A DNA stretch of 64,000 bases from Eledone cirrhosa. Lineage: Eukaryota. Below are positions 1-16,789 of the stretch, one piece after another; the first letter of the stretch is position 1, and every line of letters starts with the position of its first letter. The DNA is taken from positions 13,764,001 through 13,828,000 of the forward strand of contig OZ024763.1 of the NCBI GenBank assembly GCA_964016885.1. Direction: 5' to 3'. The notes below the pieces were generated by a model. It had not been told where the DNA came from and did no database searches. It was given only the letters and a program-made list of their open reading frames with translations. The position numbers and the translations under genes are program-made.

Positions 1-3000
1 ATCATCATCACATCATCATCACCGTTTTACGTCCGTTCTTCCACGCTAGCATGGGTTAGACGGGTTGTCCTGTTGTGGGCAGTGTCTGGTCGGCTGACCA
101 TGCCTTGCTCATACAGGAACTGATCTGGCTTGATTTCTACAGCTGGATGCCCTTCCTAACACCAACCTCATTTACAGTGAGTGCTGGGTGCTTTTTCGTG
201 GCGCCTACACGTCCACTTTACAGTGTGGGCTGGGTGCTTTTTTGCCGTGGCACCTCCACGACCACCTTGCGGTGGGGGGGGGGGGGGGGGGGGGGCATAT
301 TGTTTATATGCTTCAGCATGTACCCATGGGAGGTCGGGTACCCTGTATTACTGCGTGACGCCAGAAGTCACGGTCGTGTGTCATTGACTTTGAGAGGTGT
401 AGTTGGGTAAGGTCGGCTTTTATCACCTCATCCCAAGTCATCTTGGGTCTCCCCACTCCGCGGTTTCCATCAACTTCTAGTGCTCTGCACCTTTTTATGC
501 AGCTGTCATCCTTCATACGCATCACATGTCCATACCAGCGTAACCGCCTCTCCTGCACGCAGCATTTGATTCCTCTTATGCTCAGTCTCTCTCTCAATTC
601 ATTTATGCTTTGTCGTTCACGTATATTACTGTTACACATCCATCGGAGCATGCAGGCTTCGTTTCTCTCTAATCTACGTAAGTCTTCCACCTTCAGCGCC
701 CAGGTCTCACTACCATGCAACATCGCTGTTCGGATACACGCATCATACAGTCTGCCTTTCATTCTGAGGGAGAAGCCTTTTGCAGCTAGCAGTGGTAGTA
801 GTTCCCTAAACTTCTTCCATCCCGTTCTTACCCTAGTTATTGTACTTTCTGAGCACCCACCTCCGTTGCTAATTCGGTCACCTAGGTAGCAGAAGCTGTC
901 TACTGTTTCTACAGGGCCCTCCCAGAGATTGGTGGTACTTGTTTCCTGTGGCTGTTTGCTTGCTGTTTCAGCACAGCTGCTGCATGTGAATCCTACATTC
1001 TTAATTAAGCTTCCTGAGATCCCGCTACATCTCTTGTGTACCCATTGTTTGCATTTGGGGCAAAGAATGGAGTTCCTACCTACACCTTTCCTACATACTG
1101 AGCAAGGCCATTTCCCTGAGGGGATCTGGGTTCTGTTTTCTCGTCTACTTATAAGGACCTTAGTCTTTGTCATGTTGACTTTGAGGCCCTTTCTCTCTAG
1201 TCCCTGCTTCCAGGTTTGGAATTTATTCTCTAGTTCTACCATAGATTCAGCTATGAGTGCGAGGTCATCAGCATACAGGAGTTCCCATGGGCATCCGGTC
1301 TTAAACTCCTCCGTTATTGCCTGCAGGACTATGATGAACAGGAGAGGGCTAAGAACAGAGCCCTGGTGGACCCCAACCTGTACGCTAAATTCCTCGCTAT
1401 ACTCATTGCCAATCCTAACTTTGCTGACTGCTCCCCTATACATGGCTTGTACCGCTTTCACAAGCCATTCATCTACTCCTAGTTTTCTAAGAGCCCACCA
1501 GATTACTGCACGTGGAACTCTGTCAAAGGCTTTCTCAAGGTCGACAAATGCCAAGTAGAGTGGCTTACTTTTAGCTAGGTACTTTTCCTGTAATTGCCTC
1601 ACAAGGAAGAGCGCATCAGTGGTGCCTTTCCCTGGAACAAACCCAAATTGCATCTCGTCTATATTCACCCGGTCCCTAATCAGCTGTGCTATAACTCTTT
1701 CTGTTACTTTCATGACCTGGTCCATCAACTTTATACCTCTATAGTTTCCTCTATCTAGTGCATCGCCTTTACCTTTGTAGCAGTTGACAATGATGCTACT
1801 GCACCAATCTTTTGGTATGGCCCCCTCTAGTATTACCTGGTTAACGATACGTGTGGTTATAGTGTGACCTACAGACCCAGATGCCTTCAGCATCTCGGCA
1901 GCTATACCCGATGGACCGGTTGCCTTCCCTATCTTCATATCTCTGATTGCCTTACTTACTACGCTGCCGCTGACTTGTACTGCTGGTCCCTCTATAGGGT
2001 CTACGTGGGGTAGGGTCTCTTCTTCCCATGCATTCTCCTCATTTAGTAATCTATCATAATGACTCTTCCATGCATCTTTCTTCTCAGCACTTGTGAGGGC
2101 AAGCTCACCTTTATCATTCCGGATACACTTCTCTCCAATGACATCACAACTATCTCTGACACACTGCCTCGCAATCTTGAATACCTCCTGTTTCTGGTCC
2201 TCACGTTGTAAAACATGCTTGAATTTTCTATCCTCTGCTTCCCTCCTAGCTAAGTATACTTGTCGCCTAGCTTCCCTCTTGGTCTCTATGTAATGTACCC
2301 TGCTCCCCCCGTTCTTCCATTCTTTCCATGCCTGTCTCTTGGCCTTGACTGCTTCATCTACCTTATTGTTCCACCACCAAGTCACTCTCCTCCTGCTTGA
2401 GGTCTTACTCCAGCCACAAACCTCATCCGTCGCCTCTAGTAAGTTATTTTTTAGGAACTCCCAGTTCTCTTCTACGTTAAATGTCTCTATCTGTTCTTCT
2501 TTACTGTCGTAGGCGTTGAGTAAAATATCTTTAAATCTGTTACTGGTTGAGGGGACTTTCAGCTTCCAGATCTTTCTTCTCCAGGTTGGCCTCTGTTTCA
2601 GGGCTCGTCTAGTTCTGACCGTGAGGTCGCTGACAACTAAGCTATGTTGGGATGTACATTCCTCACTAGGGAAGGCTTTTGTGTTTACGACCGTCCATCT
2701 GTCACGTCCTCTGATGAGGATAAAATCTAACTGACTAGAGTGCTCCCCTGATCTATAGGTGATCAGGTGGTTGTCGGGTTTTTTAAAGTTTGTGTTACAT
2801 ATCGACATGTCATTGGCGTCGCAGAATTCTAGAAGTCTGAATCCTTCCTCATTCCTTGTGCCAACTCCATGGCCTCCATGTACTCTATTGAAGCCGTCGC
2901 AGTGTTTACCTACGTGTCCGTTAAAATCTCCTGCAATGATTAGGAAGTCCTTGTCGTCTGTTAGAGCAGTAGTGTGTATTAGGGACTCGTAAAACCTATC

Positions 3001-3690
3001 CTTAAGTTCGTCTGGCAGCCCCGATTGGGGTGCGTAAGCTGATATTATTGTGGTAATTGTCTTATTCAGGACTAGTCTGAGTTTAATGATTCTTGCATTT
3101 ACCCTGTACACTGAAATTACTTTATCTACCCACTTGTCAGCTAATAGTATACCTACACCACCCATCCCATCGTCATTTCCCACCCAGAAAAATTTGTAGC
3201 ACTGGCTTTTTCCTACAAGGACTCTAGCAGACCCTCCTCTCCATCTAGTCTCTTGCACACAGCATACATCAACTTCCTTTCGCTCTAGCATTTCTACGAT
3301 TTCTCCTGCTCTTCCTTTCATTGAGCCTACATTGATGGTACCAACTCGGAGTTTTGGGCATTTGTCGACACTCGTAGGGGAGGGTCTCTGGGTTGGCGCT
3401 TCACGTGGGTGCTTGGTAGCTCGCAGATTCATATTTCATCTATTGATTCAGAGTTGCTCGTGTATTCCCAGCTCATCCATCCCTAACGGTGGGAAAATTG
3501 AGGGCTAGAAGGACAGTGGTGGTGGGGTAATGGCAGGGTGTGTTGGGATGCGCCAGAGGAGGAGAGAGTTAGTTAGGCAGGTAGTAGCAGCAGCAGCAGT
3601 GGAAATGGCATGCTAGGTTTGATTGGTCGAATAGACTATGGTGGTGTGTGGGGGTGGGGGGGAGGGAAATTGTGAGGTAGGAACTGAGGG
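1..3690 (-). mobile_element. RTE-clade non-LTR retrotransposon, near full length
   Basis: Single long ORF; ~260 bp pyrimidine-rich 5' leader; 3' UTR at 1-312 with GGAAGGGCATCCAGCTGTAGAAA motif and a (TGA)n tail, seen as (CAT)n at 1-21 on +. Confidence 0.95.
313..3432 (-). CDS. RTE LINE ORF: AP endonuclease + reverse transcriptase with inserted PHD-like C4HC3 finger
   Basis: 1039 aa without stops; APE motifs GTINV, VQET, YAP, GDFNGH, LDFI, SQH; RT motifs NYRGIKL, QFGF, FVDLEKAFD, GVHQGSVLSPLLF, YADD, FCYLG; RTE C-terminal RRLRWYGHV and GRP..W. Confidence 0.97.
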   Translation of the reverse strand: MNLRATKHPREAPTQRPSPTSVDKCPKLRVGTINVGSMKGRAGEIVEMLERKEVDVCCVQETRWRGGSARVLVGKSQCYKFFWVGNDDGMGGVGILLADKWVDKVISVYRVNARIIKLRLVLNKTITTIISAYAPQSGLPDELKDRFYESLIHTTALTDDKDFLIIAGDFNGHVGKHCDGFNRVHGGHGVGTRNEEGFRLLEFCDANDMSICNTNFKKPDNHLITYRSGEHSSQLDFILIRGRDRWTVVNTKAFPSEECTSQHSLVVSDLTVRTRRALKQRPTWRRKIWKLKVPSTSNRFKDILLNAYDSKEEQIETFNVEENWEFLKNNLLEATDEVCGWSKTSSRRRVTWWWNNKVDEAVKAKRQAWKEWKNGGSRVHYIETKREARRQVYLARREAEDRKFKHVLQREDQKQEVFKIARQCVRDSCDVIGEKCIRNDKGELALTSAEKKDAWKSHYDRLLNEENAWEEETLPHVDPIEGPAVQVSGSVVSKAIRDMKIGKATGPSGIAAEMLKASGSVGHTITTRIVNQVILEGAIPKDWCSSIIVNCYKGKGDALDRGNYRGIKLMDQVMKVTERVIAQLIRDRVNIDEMQFGFVPGKGTTDALFLVRQLQEKYLAKSKPLYLAFVDLEKAFDRVPRAVIWWALRKLGVDEWLVKAVQAMYRGAVSKVRIGNEYSEEFSVQVGVHQGSVLSPLLFIIVLQAITEEFKTGCPWELLYADDLALIAESMVELENKFQTWKQGLERKGLKVNMTKTKVLISRRENRTQIPSGKWPCSVCRKGVGRNSILCPKCKQWVHKRCSGISGSLIKNVGFTCSSCAETASKQPQETSTTNLWEGPVETVDSFCYLGDRISNGGGCSESTITRVRTGWKKFRELLPLLAAKGFSLRMKGRLYDACIRTAMLHGSETWALKVEDLRRLERNEACMLRWMCNSNIRERQSINELRERLSIRGIKCCVQERRLRWYGHVMRMKDDSCIKRCRALEVDGNRGVGRPKMTWDEVIKADLTQLHLSKSMTHDRDFWRHAVIQGTRPPMGTC

Positions 3691-3954
3691 TAAAATTAAC
3701 AATAATAACAATATATATGTATATATAATATATATTTCTTAAAATAACAGATTAAAGTTAAAGCAAAGAATCGCTGCTTTTAATAAATATTTGTTCTATG
3801 GTTTTTGTATATATATTATCCTTATCGAGACCTCTTTGGATTTTAGTCTTCATATTTATTATTATTACTATATATATATTTTACATTTTTATGAGATTGG
3901 CACCTTCCAGCCCTTTTAAAGTCAAGCACTCTTCAGTCAAAAGGATTTTTAACC

Positions 3955-5930: not shown

Positions 5931-5973
5931 ATTATTATTAATCTGTTTACTTTCTCTTCTCTCCAACAAATAG

Positions 5974-6170
5974 AAAAAAGACCGATGGTTGATGAAAACG
6001 AGAAGGTTGTGGTCATCTCCCTGTCGGTCATCCTACCTGTGGCTCTGGCCATTCTTGGTATGTTAGCCTTTATTCTGGCGAAACACACCCAACAGGACAA
6101 AACCAATTCACAAGAAGACATCCTGCCAACAAAATGTCCATCTTCCAAGAAATATGTCCACAGTGGAAAT
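5974..6170 (+). CDS. Internal exon encoding the transmembrane helix of a type I membrane protein
   Basis: Pyrimidine tract + TAG acceptor (5971-73), GTAAGT donor (6171); open frame (E)KRPMVDENEKVVVISLSVILPVALAILGMLAFILAKHTQQ...HSGN; hydrophobic stretch followed by KH; phase 1 to phase 0. Confidence 0.85.
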
Positions 6171-6299
6171 GTAAGTAAAAACATATCTGTTTAATATATA
6201 TATATATATCGTGTATCAGTGTCATCCAATACTGGGCTCCAACTGGTCCCTTCACATAGCGGTGCCATCCAACGCCAGGCTCCAGCTGGTCCCTTCATA

Positions 6300-7072
6300 T
6301 CATCATCATCATCATTCGTCGACTACTGTCGAGATGATGGATCTCACTCTCATGCCCCAGAATTCCCTGTCCCCCATCGCTGCCTCCAGGTCCTGTCTAC
6401 TGATTCCCGTATCCCTAGAGATTGTAGGTGCATCATGATCAGAAACAGGACCCGAGAAAGCAGGGGCTGGACCTATATCAACAGGTATACCATATAGTGT
6501 GGTTCCCTGAGGAACAGGAACCCTGGTGCAGTTAGTTGCGAAATCCATCATCTTTTCAAATAGCTAATAATGTGTGTGGGCGCCACTACTACACACATGT
6601 GAAAGAATTTGACAGCCAAGTCTTGAAGAAGGTGCTTTTCTCCGTGTGGTGGGTTACCCGGCGCCAGATACCAGCCTGGCATTTATACCCTCACCCTAAT
6701 TGTTCGTGTTGCAAGCACTAGAGTAGTTGCTAACCAAAGCTACGGACCCACTCTATCCGTCTGGAGATACGTTGTACTAGTTTACCAGCATACTAGTAGC
6801 AGGAAGTTGACTTTTCCGGCACTGCAGCGCCTTTCAGCGGGCCGTGCTGGTTTTGGATGGCCATTGACTCCAAGAGCTCTAAGAGCTCCCAGGAGTTCCT
6901 TTGCCCTTTGACAGGTTTTGTTTTTAGTCCTACAGGATGTCCAAAGTCACCCTCCTCACCAAGAAATCTTGGTGGGGTTGCCAGTTTAGTCGCCAACGAC
7001 CCGACCATGAGACAGGTTGTACTGGGATACATGTTACCAGTAGCACCAACTGGTGACCTGACAACAACTAGC
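6300..7072 (-). mobile_element. Short non-autonomous RTE derivative (5' region fused to 3' end)
   Basis: RTE-like C-terminus ISRDTGI..DLEAAMGDREFW then (TGA)n tail at 6300-6315; GC-rich leader with GTCG..GCGACTAAA motif; flanked by ~73-bp direct repeats. Confidence 0.6.
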
Positions 7073-7740
7073 CAATACTGGGCTCCAGCTGGTCCCTTCA
7101 TATAGTGGTGCCATCCAACGCCAGGCACCAGCTGGTCCCTTCATATAGTGGCGCCATCCAACGCTAGGCTCCCAAACTGTGGCCCTGCACCTGTCCCTCC
7201 ACACCCAGTACTGGGCTCCAACTGGTCTCCTCCACATAGTGGTGCCATACAACGCCAGGCTCCCAAACTGTGGCCCTGCACCTGTCCCTCCACACCCAGT
7301 ACTGGGCTCCAACTGGTCCCCTCCACATAGTGGTGCCATCCAACGCCAGGCTCCCAAACTGTGGCCCTGCACCTGTCCCTCCACACCCAGTACTGGGCTC
7401 CAACTGGTCCCCTCCACATAGTGGTGCCATCCAACGCCAGGCTCCCAAACTGTGGCCCTGCACCTGTCCCTCCACACCCAGTACTGGGCTCCAACTGGTC
7501 CCCTCCACATAGTGGTGCCATCTAACGCCAGGCTTCCAAACTGTGGCCCTGCACCTGTCCCTCCACACCCAGTACTGGGCTCCAACTGGTCCCCTCCACA
7601 TAGTGGTGCCATCTAACGCCAGGCTTCCAAACTGTGGCCCTGCACCTGTCCCTCCACACCCAGTACTGGGCTCCAACTGGTCCCCTCCACATAGTGGTGC
7701 CATCTAACGCCAGGCTTCCAAACTGTGGCCCTGCACCTCT
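7073..7740. repeat. 91-bp GC-rich minisatellite, about 7 copies
   Basis: Unit GTACTGGGCTCCAACTGGTCCCCTCCACATAGTGGTGCCATCCAACGCCAGGCTCCCAAACTGTGGCCCTGCACCTGTCCCTCCACACCCA. Confidence 0.95.
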
Positions 7741-7769
7741 TCTTCTTTATCCAGTACCAGGACCCATAA

Positions 7770-7940
7770 CTGTGGCCATGCTGTGAGATGGGCCAGGCTC
7801 CTAAACTATGGCTCCGTTGTGAGATGGGTCAGGCTTCAAAACTGTGGTTACGTTGTGAGATGGGCCAGGCTCCTAAACTATGGCTCCGCTGTGAGATGGG
7901 TCAGGCTTCAAAACTGTGGTTACGTTGTGAGACGGGTTCA
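7770..7940. repeat. 36-bp (72-bp dimeric) minisatellite
   Basis: TGTGAGATGGG(C/T)CAGGCT..AAACT(A/G)TGG repeated 4-5 times with alternating variants. Confidence 0.9.
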
Positions 7941-8199
7941 ACGCGGGCAACTGGCCAGTCCCTCCTCATAATGGAGCCACCTAGTCCCAAACTGTAAATG
8001 TGGTTGGGGTTAGGAAGGGCATCCTGCTGTAGAATACCTGGCCAAATTTATAGTCCACGCCGGAGCAAGGTGCGACACATAGTCAACCCTGGCCAGACTT
8101 GCCTCCCGACATGAACGACCTGTCTAACCCATGCAAGCATGGAAGAATTGATGCTAAATTGATGATGATATATTGTGAAGGGGCACAAATGTGAGGTTC

Positions 8200-8525
8200 A
8201 TCATCATTTCATCTTATGTCCGCTTTTCCCTGCTTGCAAGGGTGGGACGGGAACTGATTCTGGCTTGATTTCTACAGCTGGATGCCCTTCCTAACACCAA
8301 CCTCATTTACAGTGAGTGCTGGGGGGCTTTTCTGCCGTGTCACCTCCACGACCACTTTGCAGTGGAATGATAGGGACCCCAGTCCCTATCATCTCATTTC
8401 TACAGCTGAGTAAACTGGAGCAATGTGAAATAAAGTGTCTTGCTCAAGGAAACAACACATCACCCGGTCTGAGAATTGAACTCACAACCTTTCGATTGCA
8501 AGGCCAATGCTCTAACCACTAAGCC
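8200..8525 (-). mobile_element. tRNA-head SINE with RTE-derived tail (further copies 8717-9047 and 19967-20308; related head at 45780-46005 on +)
   Basis: Minus strand: GGCTTAGTGGTTAGAGC (A box)...GAGTTCAATTCTC (B box)...TCCTTGAGCAAGACACTTTATTTCAC...GGCATCCAGCTGTAGAAA...(TGA)n. Confidence 0.9.
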
Positions 8526-9345
8526 CTGTGTCTCTATTCTGAGTTCAATTCTCGAACCAGGGGATGCATTGTGTCCTTGAGCAAGACAACCGGTAGATAG
8601 TATCAGCAATAGAAAGACCAATGGAAACATTGTTTCCTTGATTTGATTTGATGAGGTCCACCCCACTTGTGAAGCGAATGAAGTCTGGGATATTGTTGAT
8701 CGATCAAAGCGACATATCATCATCATCATCATCATCATACGTCCGCTTTTCCCTGCTAGCAAGGGTGGGACGGGAACTGATTCTGGCTTGATTTCTACAG
8801 CTGGATGCGCTTCCTAACACCAACCTCATTTACAGTGAGTGCTGGGTGCTTTTTTGCCGTGGCACCTCCACGACTACTTTGCAGTGGAGTGATAGGGACC
8901 CCAGTCCTATCATTTCATTTCTACAGCTGAGTAAACTGGAGCAATGTGAAATAAAGTATCTTGCTCAAGGAAACAACACATCACCTGGTCTGAGAATTGA
9001 ACTCACAACTTTTCGATTGCAAGCCCAATTCTCTAACCACTAAGCCATGTGCCTTTATATATATATATATGACGGTGGTGATGATGATATATATATATGA
9101 TGGTGGTGATGATGATATATATAGAGAGACAGACAGACATTTTAAAATCAATTGACACCAAAGATGGTTCTTCAAATCATTTCATTAATGTCTCCACATG
9201 TTTCAACATCAATATTACCAAGTAATACTAAAGCTTCACCAAAACAGTAATTCATGATTTGGGTGATGCAAGTCTCAAACAAATACGAGAACCCATAGTT
9301 AATATGGTAAAGAAACTGAAGAGGTATTTCTGGAGAGATTTTTAA

Positions 9346-9709
9346 CCCTTTACCATTCACATTACTCTATATATACTATTATATTTTCAAGGTAAAGTCT
9401 TTACCTCACATAATATCTCACATAACATTTACATTACTCTATATATACTATTATATTTTCATGGTAAAGGCTTTACCTCATATAATATCTCACATAATAT
9501 CCACATTACTCTATATATACTATTATATTTTCAAGGTAAAGCCTTTACCTCACATAATTATCTCACATAATATCGAATCTATGAGATTTTGAAAGTATTT
9601 ATTTTGAGAACAATACCTTAACATCAGTCTGAGTGACCAGTTACAGCCAGTTTCAACAGAATGAGGTAGAGAATTCTGGCCGGTTTTGGCCGGTTTGAAC
9701 ATTAAAGGG
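9346..9709. mobile_element. piggyBac-type MITE with internal ~71-bp triplication
   Basis: TTAA|CCCTTTA ... TAAAGGG|TTAA termini; related inverted copy at 44838-45056. Confidence 0.75.
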
Positions 9710-10529
9710 TTAAAGAAATAGAGAGAAAGTAATTTTATCTTCGGTGACGCAAAAGCAAAGTAGTTGTGTAAAGTAGGCGTGAGCTTTTTGAGTGACAAGT
9801 GACTGAAGAGGTTTTTTGAAGAGATTTTTTTTTAAAATAAAGAAGGTTATTTTATCTCTGGAGAATCACATGCAAAGTAGTTAATTAATTGTGTAAAATA
9901 GTCATGATTTTTTCAGCAACAAATGATTAGTTATAAATATATGCAGATTTAAAATATAGTTTTTATGCTCTGTATTCTTCCATAAGTGGCTAATACATTG
10001 AGATTTTTGGTATTTGGTAATAAACGAATCTAATACCCACATTATTCAGCTCCTAGATTGATAACTATAGAGTTATACCAATATCTCTTTCAACACACAA
10101 TTTTGTATCAATAATCTTTCAAAACCAATACAAATACGAGGTATATCATCATCATTGCCATTTTTATATCCAATTTTCCACGCTTGCATGGGTTGGATGA
10201 GTCCTTTTCAGCACAGTATCTCTTCACTTGTTGCGTTCCATGTGTATATATAAATATAATTTTTTTCTTTTTCCGTTTCCACCCTGATTGTCTCCTCTAT
10301 CTTTCTATTTATTTTTTATTTCTCATTCTATTTTCTGATAAAGGACTAGCATCTGAAACATTAAGACTCTTTTCCTACTATATCAAGCAGAAAACTAATA
10401 TATTTCTTCATCGTACTATGTTGTTTGCTTCGTTATTTCTGTTTACCTTTTGCATATATATATATTTATATATATAAAAACAAGAAGTGTAAGTCAACAG
10501 GTTAAAATTAACTTTGTTTATTCATAATC

Positions 10530-10588
10530 GCTGTTATATATATTTTGGTAATAACTATTATTCAACAGCTATGACCTCATCAGACAGC
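10530..10588 (-). ncRNA. Degenerate type I hammerhead ribozyme (G12 to A)
   Basis: GCTGT-CTGATGA-GGTCATAGCTGTT..AATAGTTATTACC-AAAA-TATATATA-ACAGC; stems preserved, GAAA core mutated. Confidence 0.65.
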
Positions 10589-10868
10589 TAGATTTTGAAC
10601 AGGAAAAACAGAAAAACATAATGATGGAATAAAGCTTACTTCTGTTATTTTAATTTGTTGATATGCTCCATGCTGAAGTTTGGTGTTGTTTTCTCAAAGC
10701 ACTGGTTGAAATATATAACAGCGAAAATGAATAGACTAAGTTAATTTTAACCTGTTTACTTACACTTCTTATTTTTAAATTACTCCGGAGTAAACAGGCC
10801 CACCTGCGCTCTTTGTTGAGTGCTCTACCCTGCATACTGAAGTGTCAGTAATTAACCAACATATACTA

Positions 10869-10904
<36 letters not shown>

Positions 10905-11063
10905 GATAACAAATTATTGTTTTAGGTAATCCAGTTAGAGGTTGTGAGTACTCTGTACTATGGATAGTTTTAACATATGGTGTTGTTTGACTCAACAAGA
11001 GGTTTCCTTAGTTAGGTGGCGAGTTCTCGGGAATTCCTATGTAGGTTAATCTTGGAGTAATAG

Positions 11064-11380
11064 TAGTGAAAGAGTGAAGTATAACATGGCCAACAGTACA
11101 AAAAGGGTATTATTTACAGTATTGACAATTGTTTCATTGATTAAGTTGTCTAAAAATTGCTAATCACTTGAAGTTGTGTCACTCAATTTTACAACCGCTG
11201 TATATAATTTTAATCAGTTTTTCCGATGGTTTGATTAGGCATACATTGTATTTAAAATTGAGTGACACAACTTCAAGTGATTAGCAATTTTTAGACACCC
11301 TAATCAATGAAACAATTGTTAATACTGTAAATAAAACCCTTTTTGTACTGTTGACCATGTTATTCTTCACTCTTTCACTA
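11064..11380. repeat. Inverted repeat with ~125-bp arms (Penelope-like foldback)
   Basis: 11064-11191 is the near-perfect reverse complement of 11253-11380; carries a hammerhead-like 3' half GAAACAATTGT(C/T). Confidence 0.8.
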
Positions 11381-11446
11381 TATATATATATATATATATA
11401 AGAGAGTATTGAAGTTTGCTTGAAGTAATGTGGAATAATAAGGTAA

Positions 11447-11593
11447 ATATCTTTAAGTCGTTTGGAAGCCTCGACAATGCAAATGGGTAAATCTCCGGGT
11501 AACAAGATCCGGTGGTGGAGAGAGAGATGTAAGTGGGTGTACCCGGAGATTTACCCATTTGCATTGTCGAGGCTTCCAAACGACTTAAAGATA
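11447..11593. repeat. Perfect ~55-bp inverted repeat
   Basis: ATATCTTTAAGTCGTTTGGAAGCCTCGACAATGCAAATGGGTAAATCTCCGGGTA and its exact reverse complement about 37 nt downstream. Confidence 0.9.
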
Positions 11594-12037
11594 TATATTT
11601 AAGTTAACGAGGTATCGTTTAAGGCCATCCAATGTGCTTGCTAAACCAATGTGAACTTAAAACTTTGAAAGTAATTTTATTTTGTGAACATTTACCTGTA
11701 ATTTACCTGTAACATTACCTTTGAAGTCTTGCTGTCTTTTATCAGGATGCTTCTGTATTTTCAATGTTACTCGGAATAAACCCTAATGTATAGCCGATCC
11801 GTGTTATTCTTCACTCCTTTATTATATATATATATATACAGTCCTCCTATACGAGTGAGACATGGTCACCCGATCAATCTTGCCTCAAGTGGGACAATTC
11901 CCGTCTAACCCATGCTAGCATGGAAGATGGACGTTAAATGATGATGATGATGATATATATATATATATGTATATATATATAAAATAATTAAGTCAAATAT
12001 GTAAAATTTGGCTTCGTTTATTATAAATTATAGATAT

Positions 12038-12092
12038 ACTGCTATATATATTTCGGTGACAGCTATCATTTGCTGTGACCTCTTCAGGCAGT
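12038..12092 (-). ncRNA. Type I hammerhead ribozyme, intact core
   Basis: ACUGC-CUGAAGA-GGUCACAGC(AAAUGAUA)GCUGUCACC-GAAA-U(AUAU)AUA^GCAGU: stem I 5 bp, stem II 8/9 pairs, short palindromic stem III; mutated + copy at 12232-12286. Confidence 0.85.
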
Positions 12093-12496
12093 CCGAATTG
12101 GTGTGGTAGAGACAGGTACACATGTTGTTGAAGTGTGTTTTACTCCGTCAATACATCGATATGTCCAGCTCCTGTTGTGTTGTTATTTCCTTGTGGAACT
12201 GGAATCATATGATTCGGACATAACAATTCGGACTGGCTGAAGAGGTCAGAGCCAATGATAGCTGTCACTGAAATGTATATAGCAGTATATCTATAATTTA
12301 TAATAAACGAAGCCAAATTTTACATATTTGACTTAATTAATTTACATTACTCCGGAGTAAACAAACCAACCGTTGAGTGCTTCAGCCTGCATACTGAGGT
12401 GTCGGTAAACAAACAACATATACTCAAAATTTATATATATATATATATATATATACGATATTAAACAAATGGAAACTATATTTATAAAACCATATT

Positions 12497-12562
12497 TATT
12501 TCATTATACATATTTCGGGGATACCATATTAAAAATATGGCATGCCTTCTTCAGATAAAATA
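12497..12562 (-). ncRNA. Type I hammerhead ribozyme, antisense copy in left palindrome arm
   Basis: Reverse complement of 12806-12871. Confidence 0.75.
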
Positions 12563-12805
12563 CAATATATAAGCAGTTTTATAAATAATTTTGACGTACC
12601 ATAAATATTGATCAACTTTCATGTAAGAAGTTGGTTTGGTAGTGAGATGTTTATAAATATTGTAAATATTTTATAACTGATATAAACCAACTGATATAAA
12701 CCAACTGATATAAACCAACTGATATAAACCAAACCAACTTCTTACATGAAAGTTGATCAATATTTATGGTATGTCAAAATTATTTATAAAACTGCTTATA
12801 TATTG

Positions 12806-12871
12806 TATTTTATCTGAAGAAGGCATGCCATATTTTTAATATGGTATCCCCGAAATATGTATAATGAAATA
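12806..12871 (+). ncRNA. Type I hammerhead ribozyme, sense to host intron, copy 1
   Basis: UAUUUUAU-CUGAAGA-A-GGCAUGCCAUAUU(UUU)AAUAUGGUAUCCCC-GAAA-U(AUGU)AUA^AUGAAAUA; predicted cut after 12863. Confidence 0.78.
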
Positions 12872-13015
12872 AATATGGTTTTATAAATATAGTTTCCATT
12901 TGTTTAATATCGTATATATATATAAATAAATTTTGAGTATATGTTGTTTGTTTACCGACACCTCAGTATGCAGGCTATTATGGTCAAAATTATTTATAAA
13001 ACTGCTTATATATTG

Positions 13016-13081
13016 TATTTTATCTGAAGAAGGCATGCCATATTTTTAATATGATATCCCCGAAATATGTATAATGAAATA
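13016..13081 (+). ncRNA. Type I hammerhead ribozyme, sense to host intron, copy 2
   Basis: Direct repeat of copy 1, 210 nt downstream, one G>A change in stem II; predicted cut after 13073. Confidence 0.75.
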
Positions 13082-13258
13082 AATATGGTTTTATAAATAT
13101 AGTTTCCATTTGTTTAATATCGTATATCTACTCCAAAACTTGTTGAGTGCTTTATATCAGTTATAAAATATTTACTCGTTGTAACCCAACAATTTTAAAT
13201 AAAACTTTTGCATATATATATATATATATATATATTTTTATTTTTTTATTTTATTTAG

Positions 13259-13483
13259 GACAAGGATTCTACGGTTGTGAAGTTGTTTGTTGACAATGAT
13301 CAGAAGCCAATTCGGACAACCAAGATTCGACTCCAGGACACCCGGAGTGAACGAGTTCCTCTCAACAGCTACGCCGACATGCCAACACAACTACAGGTGT
13401 TTACGTCAGTAGCCCTTAACGACGTAGAAGAAGAAGAACCAGAATTTGAAGAACGACCAAACGGTTACCTTGGTCTCATGTAG
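13259..13483 (+). CDS. Terminal coding exon: cytoplasmic tail of the membrane protein
   Basis: T-rich tract + TTTAG acceptor; phase 0 matches the 6170 donor; DKDSTVVKLFVDNDQKPIRTTKIRLQDTRSERVPLNSYADMPTQLQVFTSVALNDVEEEEPEFEERPNGYLGLM*. Confidence 0.85.
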   Translation, partial: DKDSTVVKLFVDNDQKPIRTTKIRLQDTRSERVPLNSYADMPTQLQVFTSVALNDVEEEEPEFEERPNGYLGLM

Positions 13484-15325
13484 AACTGAACATTGGTCAA
13501 ACGGCTAATTTTGGCCTCTTGTAATTGTAACGCTGACCAACAACACTAACACCACCACCACCACCACTACCACCGCCGCCACCACCAATTTTCATCCTTC
13601 CGTGGGTGTCGATAAAATAAAGTACCAGTAACATTCTGGGGTCAATTTAATTGACTTACTCCTCCCTCAAATTAGAAGCAATGATTAACACAACCCTTGT
13701 CTTCCGAATTTACTCACAGATCTCAGATTAAAGTGAATAATGATAATAATGACTCCCCCCTCCTCCTCCCCTCATATTGTTGGCTCTTTTGTAGCGCCAT
13801 CTATTTTTTAAAGTTGTCCAGGAAGATAACTAACAAAGGTAGATAACTCAGAAATGTTTCTTTCTCTTGCCACCAACCAGTAATGTATTAAATATGACAC
13901 AAATGACACAAACAATACTGTCAAGACTCTCATCTTGCTAAACCAATGTGAACTTAAAACTTTGAAAGTAGTTTTATTTTGTGAAAATTTACCTGTAATT
14001 TACCTGTAACATTACCTTTGAAGTTTGCTGGCCTTTATCAAAATGCTTCTATATTTTCAATGTTAATCTCTTAACTACCAACAGCAATTATACATATTTA
14101 ATGTATTGACTCCTCTATTACCATACTTCTATTGGAAGATGCTGTTTTTGGTTTTCATATCATTTTGGAAATAATGAAGAATTTGGAGGTATTTAATAAT
14201 ATAACTTTCTCATTATTAAATCTGGTGTTTGGAACATAACTTAAGAAAGGTTCTTGCATAAAATAATGATGGGAGGTGTTTTAGATAAATATAAACATTT
14301 TATCCCATTCATTGCCGTATTTCATATGAAATACACTGTCTATGTTTGGAACAAAACTTAACAAAGGTTCTTACATAAAATTTTGATGGAAGGTGTTTGA
14401 ACCCTTTCATTGCCGTATTTCATATGAAATACACTGTCTCTGTCTGGAGCATAACTTAACAAAGGTTCTGACATAAAATATGGATTTTTAGGTAAATATA
14501 AACACTTTAAAACAAACAGTTTTGTATTGTAAAACCAGTGGCGGTGGTTTTAGGTGGTTTGGTACCCAAAGGGTTTGTTTCAACCCTAAATATATGAACA
14601 CTTATTTTTTTAACATGGTGAAAGGACAGCTTTTTGAAACTCAACTAGAATCATCACGAATGAGTTTTGTTTTGTAAGGTGTGATTAAAGAAACAAAACA
14701 TGATGAGAGAAAGTCCGTTAAGGTTTAATTGTGACGAGGTTGAGGTAGTACCGAACGATATCATGAATTTTGAACGATTTTTTTTTTTTGCAAGATGTGT
14801 ATAAAACAGGAGAAAGATTATACAGAAGTATAAATGTATATATATATATGTATGGAAGTGTGAATATATCTATGGAAGTGTATGTATATATGTATGGAAA
14901 TGTGTATGTTTGAGTGCATGTGTGAGTATATATCTATGGGAGTGCATGTGTGTATAAAAGTATCTATATATGTGTGTGTATATGTATGTATATATCGATG
15001 TATGTATATTTTTGGAGAAGTTTGAGCTATGGAAAGAAATTAAAATGAAAAAAAAATGAAATATTGGATAGGGCAACACACAATATATATATATGTACAT
15101 ATATATATATACATATATATATTATATATATATATGGGAAAATGTTTAACCCCGACGGCAGAGCTCAAGCCGTTTTGACGGCTATTTCAGTCCAGAAATA
15201 GCCGTCGAAACTGCTTGAGCTCTGCCGTCGGGGTTAAACATTTTCCCATTACCCACTCTACTACCCTGAGTATTGAGTACTCTGGTGCATTATGGTCCAT
15301 CTGGTTCCTTACCAGACTTCCTTTG

Positions 15326-15405
<80 letters not shown>

Positions 15406-15931
15406 ATCCATCTATAAGATGGGCACACAAATCTAAACTGCCACTCAAATATTTTTCAAATGAAATTTTTTTTTCTTTCTATGAGTGAAATATTTGGAAG
15501 TAATTTGTAAAAAGTAAATGGTTATAAATATATGATGATGATGAAGATGATGATGCTATAACTACCAAAAAGTTGTGCTGCATTATTCCATGTACATATG
15601 TGTGTGTGTATATATATATGTATACATACATATATGTGTATACATACATGTATGTGTATATGCATATATACGTGTATGTATATGTACATATATATATATA
15701 TATACACACACACATTTTCTTTATAAATATCTCTGTTCATTGTCTGTGTAAAGATGAATATATTTGTCAAATGCATTTTTTTTTAATGGTTTGTAAAGTG
15801 AGTTTGAGGAAATTGGGAGATACATACACACACACACACATCCATGCACATATACATACATATAAACTCACAAACAACATATATACACATACATACACAT
15901 ATATATGCACATGTATACATACACATGTGTT

Positions 15932-15963
<32 letters not shown>

Positions 15964-16789
15964 TATGAAAAAATTCAGGACCCTGGCAGCTGAGCTCCTG
16001 ACGTTGATCTAGCTGTTGAAACAGCAGGAGCTCAGCCATCGGGGTCCTGAATTTTTTCATATTACCCACTCTACTACCCCAAATATTGAGTACTCTGGTG
16101 AGTTAGGGTCTAACTGGTTTTTACCACCACCATTCTGATATATATATATATATACACACTTTATAAACAACAATCAAAGAGTGTTTAAAAATACTAACGG
16201 TCGTTTCATCCAAGCACAAGGCCGGATTCATCAGAGTACAAATAAAAGTTTGAAACAGATAAATTTGTCAAAAAACATTCTGGGGATACCACATATGGGA
16301 AGAAAGCATAAATAATAGATATTTACAAGATATAAGAGAGGAAAGCAAGAAGCATATATATATATATACACATACTCATACACACACACATATATATACA
16401 AACATATGTATACATACACATATACAACACATATCTGTCCAATATTTTCCCTGTAGTTCTGTTTTTCCCATGTTGTGCTGTCTTGGGTCACTGGCGTGGA
16501 CTAAACTCCCGTAAACCAAACATTCTTTCCTTTTGTCAGACACCATAGCCACTATCACCACCACCACCATCACCATCACCACAACTCCCATACCCACCAT
16601 CGCCACCATTTTCATTGCTTTCTTTTCTTTTTGTTGTATTGTCTTTGGTCCCTGGCGTGGATTAAAACCCCGTAAACCGATTTCTGTTTCCTTCCTAGTA
16701 TGTATACATATATACACACAGCATTCCTATACATATATATACACACACACATTAATATATATATATGTATATGTACACACACAACATCA

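Follow-up and report, generated by a model that had tools for sequence, protein, structure and literature searches.

Two same-strand hammerhead motifs in an Eledone cirrhosa intron as the probable product of a truncated Penelope-like insertion with a folded-back arm

The window analysed here is a 64,000-nt stretch of the Eledone cirrhosa genome (assembly GCA_964016885.1, contig OZ024763.1, positions 13,764,001 to 13,828,000 of the forward strand), and it contains two exons of an octopod CUB-domain membrane protein gene, separated by the last coding intron (Table 1). These two exons are contiguous in three octopod CUB-domain membrane proteins (P0121–P0123, from Octopus bimaculoides, O. sinensis and Argonauta hians). 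This protein homology and the GT..AG borders support the placement of a pair of hammerhead motifs inside this intron and on the pre-mRNA strand, as an earlier note on this DNA had claimed; the second predicted cut lies 185 nt 5′ of the acceptor AG, in keeping with the distance of about 190 nt given there. One sequencing-run contig (X3) covers the last exon from 13261, but its edge is a masked repeat and it is not evidence of splicing. A paralogue of the last exon, 95% identical, is found 310 kb downstream (L062:1245–1504, G000:C24), in a region with no match to the transmembrane exon. The paralogous intron was considered as an empty site and rejected, since its blocks are common with those of the window only up to position 11938; beyond that point the two diverge, and the paralogous intron has an older antisense insertion of its own from the element family found in the window, 80% alike and ending almost at the acceptor.

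Table 1. Features of the host gene and of the hammerhead-bearing insertions in the window (. marks a feature with no strand given)
Feature	Position	Strand	Remarks
Host exon	5973..6170	+	Encodes the transmembrane segment of an octopod CUB-domain membrane protein; 74% identical to residues 186–251 of P0121
Last coding intron, 7088 nt	6171..13258	+	GT..AG, phase 0; donor GT at 6171
Family 2 (older hammerhead repeat), inverted short arm	11977..12105	-	Core 12087, predicted cut after 12043
Family 2, sense arm	12219..12430	+	Core 12237, predicted cut after 12281; the (TA)n at the end of its 3′ tail took the younger insertion
Left flank (family 2 tail), template for the inter-hammerhead spacer	12384..12434	+	100% match to 12926–12976, opposite strand
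Left arm: antisense 5′-truncated pLTR, short 3′ end	12448..12661	-	Core 12554; 99.5% to the L039 pLTR
28-nt element tail piece	12662..12689	-	Equals 13148–13175; template jump at left-arm end
14-nt repeat, three periods, from tail piece to fold-back	12675..12730	.	Composed of letters from the tail and of letters that complement the left arm
Sense copy 1: fold-back copy of the left arm	12728..12920	+	Core 12814
Spacer	12921..12982	+	Shortened (TA)n, 51-nt inverted left flank (12926–12976), 6-nt junction
Sense copy 2: right arm, 5′-truncated pLTR, long 3′ end (tail)	12983..13211	+	Core 13024
(TA)n target remnant, pyrimidine tract, acceptor AG (13257–13258)	13212..13258	+	
Last coding exon, 74 codons and stop	13259..13483	+	70% identical to the C-terminus of P0121; 95% paralogue 310 kb downstream

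A descriptor scan places the two sense hammerhead cores (CUGAAGA) at 12814 (+) and 13024 (+), with the GAAA motifs at 12852 and 13062 and the predicted cuts after 12863 (copy 1) and 13073 (copy 2), i.e., 210 nt apart. An antisense hammerhead has its core at 12554 (−) and its predicted cut after 12505, and three further cores lie at 12237 (+), 12087 (−) and 16234 (−). The six descriptor matches in the window, compared with 0.083 per window in 60 first-order resamples, indicate that the hammerheads did not arise by chance. The type I core CUGANGA, GAAA, UH and three stems with covariation are present. Stem I is paired at 8 of 8 positions, and stem III consists of A15.1–U16.1 and U15.2–A16.2 around AUGU and is self-complementary with G–U pairs. 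Stem II starts with an A·C apposition (or an extra A) and carries a C·C mismatch. The 10.1–11.1 pair, usually G–C, is A·C in the homologous register and becomes G–C only when the A is counted as an extra nucleotide, a feature that has been described for the hammerheads of Penelope-like elements (PLEs) in PMC4209133; in the homologous alignment, older subfamilies have A–U or G–U at this pair. Copy 2 also has a private C·A mismatch in stem II (C13038/A13054), where a private G>A at 13054 breaks the pair. Thus, the scan bears out the earlier note in its description of two type I hammerheads with these cores, cuts and spacing and a 2-bp stem III with a self-complementary loop. The exact antisense copy that it reported was likewise recovered, with 12497–12562 being the exact reverse complement of 12806–12871, though the inverted arm is longer than that. 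The Rfam hammerhead model, which the note had named as a check, did not recognise the motifs: no hammerhead was returned at gathering scores, and at E ≤ 10 there was none among 79 matches in 11900–16400, all of which were low-complexity; minimal PLE variants need not be covered by the models.

The hammerhead fold was examined in 20 natural variants, comprising 17 of 24 family-1-like sequences (seven near-identical young ones were left out) and three of family 2, an older hammerhead repeat directly upstream. Pairing was retained in 92.8% of 360 cells, and two-sided changes occurred in 11 of 18 pairs. The percentage of paired cells was reached by none of 500 shuffles, a count that is not a probability, since the sequences are related and were picked by core pattern. 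These observations support the conservation of the fold across subfamilies through compensatory changes; the motif therefore matters to the element and, contrary to the folding prediction given below, may cleave in vivo with help. A mismatch at the fourth stem II position, mostly C·C, was also observed in both unrelated families and in most subfamilies (window 12824/12848 and the 12247 region; alignment A1 columns 21 and 55), and its retention possibly reflects a conserved tertiary or protein contact.

Family 2 is arranged head-to-head as well, with its own 129-bp hairpin. The search returned 1416 candidates, 40 of which were scored, the others of the family being 89–91% alike; most copies have the canonical G10.1–C11.1, and no autonomous partner was seen in 19 other loci. 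Other head-to-head inverted structures occur in the intron at 10472–10873 and 11088–11383, one with a family 2-like tail, and the end of the intron is a cluster of head-to-head insertions. A 135-nt direct repeat (11637–11772 and 13934–14068; 98% and 86% in two blocks), with its copies 2297 nt apart, brackets this cluster together with the last exon. Elsewhere in the window, a type I hammerhead of a third family is found at 16196–16234 (−), with the core CUGAUGA, stem II paired at 6 of 6 positions and the loop III CGACCG. An uninterrupted 1040-codon frame at 313–3435 (−), in the host gene region, encodes the endonuclease and reverse transcriptase of a non-LTR element, which we take to be RTE-like.

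The younger repeat unit has 765 candidates in the genome, the best matches being 95–100% alike, and its 42-nt core occurs in 546 exact copies, compared with none for the reversed control. Four longer genomic stretches were examined for an ORF partner of the pLTR. In one long copy (L039), an inverted truncated copy is followed by a pLTR, an ORF and a second pLTR; the pLTRs lie at 3572–3800 and 7634–7781, with their cores at 3613 and 7675, i.e., 4062 nt apart, and an ATG is found 51 nt past the long end of the unit. Further ORF copies are present at L038 and L040, and every ORF copy seen is interrupted. An RT-like ORF at L020 was rejected as the partner, as it is located beyond the pLTR and is part of an adjacent element. 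The element ORF, which stands between direct pLTRs in other family copies and is missing from the copy in the window, combines an RT with a C-terminal GIY-YIG-like domain. At E ≤ 0.001, 374 relatives of the protein were found; among those with a name, one from Argonauta ranks best. Its motifs were compared with the Hydra-clade list in section 11 of PMC8557442 and include RT motifs (LYRDD), RWR (RWK in three of seven aligned relatives), DKT, CNCRNKSKC (CxCX5C), the GIY-YIG-like motif, CDLC (CxxC) and CRH (CxH). In Pfam, the family's own ORFs, that of L039 included, matched neither an RT nor a GIY-YIG model, RVT_1 being matched by one of the seven aligned relatives at 9e-6, and a PDB sequence search with the alignment of ORF relatives returned nothing; the assignment of the element therefore rests on motifs. 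The features of endonuclease-bearing (EN+) Penelope-like elements were found, i.e., an ORF with RT and GIY-YIG, a hammerhead in the pLTR, and an inverted 5′-truncated copy with a tail at one end, and the insertion is bounded by (TA)n, as for Hydra-clade targets. By these comparisons, each hammerhead is shown to be the pLTR of a young Penelope-like element, placed in the Hydra clade by its motifs, which fits the earlier description of the hammerheads as minimal ones of the Penelope kind. No description of this octopod Penelope hammerhead family was found in the literature consulted, mostly open-access papers; the family lists of PMC8557442 may contain it.

The usual footprint of the family was assessed at 68 other loci, a non-random sample: 28 of them came from a short-end query as its best matches, and the other 40 were chosen among the first 100 of the 546 core places. 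Here, the short end is the equivalent of 13130 and the long end that of 13211. Head-to-head pairs (a minus arm, then a plus arm) are present at 39 loci, and 33 of these have exactly one short and one long end. The remainder comprises 26 loci with a single arm within the examined stretch, two with same-strand pairs more than 600 nt apart, and one below the identity threshold; none of the 68 has a close same-strand tandem. The first 100 core places yield 30 minus/plus neighbours at distances of up to 6 kb and one same-strand pair (4 kb), with no such pair inside 500 nt; the other 446 places are outside this count and may include further close tandems. The same-strand copies at L066 and L099, about 1.0 and 1.2 kb apart and both long-ended, are probably one insertion beside another. 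L021, which had been flagged as a flank fold-back in a test of 40 nt of flank, was counted as negative, since its apparent flank is an adjacent older family copy; none of the 68 loci thus has a true flank fold-back. An inverted 5′-truncated copy with a tail at one end is also the layout published for PLEs in the relevant parts of PMC8557442 and PMC3846280, and opposite-strand hammerhead pairs 100–700 bp apart are reported in PMC4209133. The antisense arm is thus the ordinary insertion footprint of the family and not a special switch.

Within this footprint, the standard pair of the locus consists of 12448–12661 (short) and 12983–13211 (long), and what is unusual is the extra sense copy with 51 nt of inverted flank, which is copied off the antisense arm. 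The segment 12728–12976 is the reverse complement of 12384–12640, save for one substitution and a shorter (TA)n. The 14-nt unit before it draws some of its letters from the tail and the others from the arm's complement at 12630–12640. The 210 nt between the two cuts are a one-off chimera: 57 nt belong to the pLTR 3′ part, 5 nt to a TA/linker stretch, 51 nt to the inverted flank and 6 nt to the junction, and 91 nt come from the pLTR 5′ part. Full cover of the 86 letters of the spacer/unit junction was obtained only at the locus itself (41 matches; 40 of 96 candidates scored), with the others stopping by letter 55, and no full second copy of the loop junction was found. All three arms have a minority sub-lineage letter in common, and their private changes number zero in the left arm, one in copy 1 and two in copy 2, suggesting that the arms come from one source and one short period.

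The arrangement can be compared with several known systems, as far as the cited parts of the respective papers describe them. Like Hydra-clade PLEs (PMC8557442, PMC3846280), the family combines a hammerhead pLTR, a GIY-YIG after the RT, RWK/DKT/CxCX5C-type motifs and (TA)n targets with head-to-head truncated arms and a tail at one end only. Unlike them, it has a unit of about 4.1 kb (about 1.6 kb of it 3′ non-coding) compared with the "generally <3 kb" described for them, 3′ ends about 80–90 nt apart instead of a 30–40-bp tail, and, at the present locus, a third, fold-back arm with copied flank. The type I core, long stem II, short palindromic stem III, dual opposite-strand copies 100–700 bp apart and low expected activity are those of the minimal PLE hammerheads of Cervera and de la Pena 2014 (PMC4209133), whereas a stem I of 8 bp or more, the A·C of the young family (or the extra A in a shifted register) in place of the usual G10.1–C11.1, and the C·C kept at the fourth stem II position in two unrelated families are not. 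Animal non-LTR retrozymes (PMC7229834, 10.64898/2026.07.22.740005) resemble the locus in having two same-strand type I hammerheads, here 210 nt apart, with low GC and no coding capacity; the locus differs from them in that there is no repeated monomer, only a single locus, that the hammerheads belong to the pLTR of an autonomous element, and that an arm sequesters one copy. The inverted duplications at L1 sites, which are attributed to self-annealed 3′ ends (10.1101/2024.12.14.628481), have in common with it a microhomology turn, inverted neighbouring DNA and end-joining to the other side. However, the turn there is mostly on the reciprocal genomic end, whereas here it is on the cDNA-bearing end, so that element sequence was duplicated along with the flank.

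Based on these observations, we propose that a truncated, back-to-back Hydra-clade PLE insertion took place in (TA)n, that its left arm likely folded back and copied itself together with 51 nt of flank, and that the resulting tandem is predicted to stay uncut; we give this reading a probability of roughly 0.68. Its starting point is the pLTR hammerhead, together with the family's habit of inserting as two head-to-head 5′-truncated arms, normally with one short and one long 3′ end. Both arms would have been reverse-transcribed from the two sides of one (TA)n break. A Penelope protein cuts and extends both target strands in vitro, two internal start sites give the tail, and ribozyme cleavage is unnecessary for insertion in that system (PMC11167929). 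Against two-sided priming, PMC3846280 explains head-to-head pairs by self-priming on the antisense template instead. Read from left to right, the plus strand corresponds to the first-strand cDNA of the left arm, running from (TA)n through the hammerhead to 12661, then the 28 nt of tail and the stutter. The left cDNA would thus have jumped to the tail, stuttered and self-annealed via a few bases; extension in the reverse direction, by either the element's RT or a host repair polymerase, would then have carried it across the arm, the (TA)n and the flanking host DNA before it was joined to the right arm at 12977–12983. In the transcript, the left arm, which is made first, is predicted to zip with copy 1 into a hairpin of about 245 bp, leaving copy 2 without a dimer partner, and neither cutting nor release of a 210-nt circle would be expected at a meaningful rate. 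In the literature consulted, again mostly open-access papers, no snap-back or inverted-duplication junction of this type was described for a PLE.

The same element and the same inert outcome could also be reached if the extra copy was added later, by a template switch of a host replication or repair polymerase at the two-arm hairpin and a subsequent return. Such a switch would find a ready substrate in a perfect inverted repeat that ends in (TA)n, ordinary two-arm pairs are common, and the product sequence would be identical; however, the left arm has no private change for copy 1 to inherit, and the turn is located where the end of a nascent cDNA would be, at the left arm's truncated 5′ end and beside the tail jump and the stutter. 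These two points favour, without proving, a fold-back at insertion time. The timing comparison has only a handful of changes to go on (0, 1 and 2 private sites) and is compatible with a switch soon after insertion, and we consider a later origin rather unlikely. No empty allele was found, and the order of events is read from one sequence. An assembly artefact would be another source of the extra copy, since assembly is difficult across (TA)n runs and inverted repeats that are nearly perfect (PMC8557442), and none of the contigs listed from four sequencing runs bridges the junctions. Yet the three arms differ from each other (at 12772, at 13054 and in (TA)n length), both junctions have their own complex sequence, which is not expected of simple mis-joining, and the window contains no N, which makes an artefact highly improbable. 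The proximity of the second cut to the acceptor, together with a relative of the element just before the acceptor of the paralogous intron, might point to a selected device that regulates how the last intron is spliced. However, the insertion is of very recent origin, with 0–2 private changes per arm, copy 2 has already lost one stem II pair, and the copy in the paralogue is a different, older antisense insertion explained by (TA)n preference; a selected device is therefore hardly credible.

The remaining alternatives concern the RNA. Folding of 12384–13258, an equilibrium prediction that takes no account of proteins, editing or kinetics, pairs copy 1 with the antisense arm at probability 1.00, and copy 1 is predicted to be fully locked in the hairpin. 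The predicted duplex energy of the arm is −389 kcal/mol with copy 1 and its flank, compared with −220 kcal/mol with copy 2. The suggestion of the earlier note that the arm could pair with one copy into long dsRNA is in line with this prediction. Its "built-in off switch" stands only as far as this pairing goes and is otherwise overstated, since the arm is the standard footprint and the template of copy 1, is transcribed first, and has no evident trigger. Dimeric PLE hammerheads were reportedly studied by Lunse et al. 2017. The note had further suggested that a 210-nt RNA could be released from the intron between the two hammerheads and circularise, or that the intron could cut the pre-mRNA, its output being tuned by the arm and ADAR. 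Both cores are indeed complete and on the pre-mRNA strand, 210 nt falls inside the 170–400 nt of animal retrozymes (PMC7229834), and it is possible to draw a nested double hammerhead that includes one non-canonical pair, at a predicted cost of 7.7 kcal/mol above the ensemble in the isolated tandem and 11.3 kcal/mol without the arm. In context, i.e., with the arm, the penalty rises to 152 kcal/mol, and to this are added the A·C at 10.1/11.1 and the further C·A in copy 2. Minimal PLE hammerheads do not cleave alone and do so poorly even as dimers (PMC4209133), and cleavage was absent in eight of nine Xenopus dimers (10.64898/2026.07.22.740005). Editing of repeats is widespread in cephalopods (PMC9068888), and the hairpin is a plausible ADAR substrate; however, editing that loosens the hairpin would be expected to strike core adenosines too. 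No fossil ADAR signature is present in the three arms, and letter differences over the element in the run contigs were rejected as editing, since they stem from other genomic copies. With copy 1 locked and stem II of copy 2 mismatched, release of a 210-nt circle is unlikely, as is a cut pre-mRNA, and the full suggestion with its tuned output appears very unlikely. The retrozyme reading of the note fails on sequence structure as well: the 210 nt are not a repeat unit but five parts of different origin, only 148 of them are common to the two copies and the rest is local flank, and the junction has no daughter copies among the candidates scored. A related but distinct proposal is that the locus is a snapshot of the birth of a retrozyme, in which the fold-back during Penelope insertion turned a pLTR into a same-strand dimer and created a new 210-nt unit retaining the short reverse-transcription start site of the element, so that only loss or editing of the mirror arm would separate it from a self-excising, circularising and re-insertable RNA. 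This would supply the missing step from pLTR to animal retrozyme and explain silent newborn dimers, and it seems to us a long shot. By the features tested, the locus is a PLE that at most works like a disabled retrozyme dimer, and it is most likely a copying scar and not a circular-RNA element.

Hundreds of copies of this young transposon end exist; the present one bears a rare copying accident (one of 69 loci examined). Tandem and inverted Penelope ends are named as an open question in the part of PMC8557442 that concerns them, and the mechanistic value of the present junction is that it apparently records a cDNA end jumping, stuttering and folding back into its flank. It also calls for caution, as a pair of hammerheads a few hundred bases apart is not the same as a retrozyme. 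Should the 210-nt fragment be freed in vivo, it would point to one path by which a pLTR becomes a retrozyme, and to a means by which such insertions cleave host pre-mRNA.
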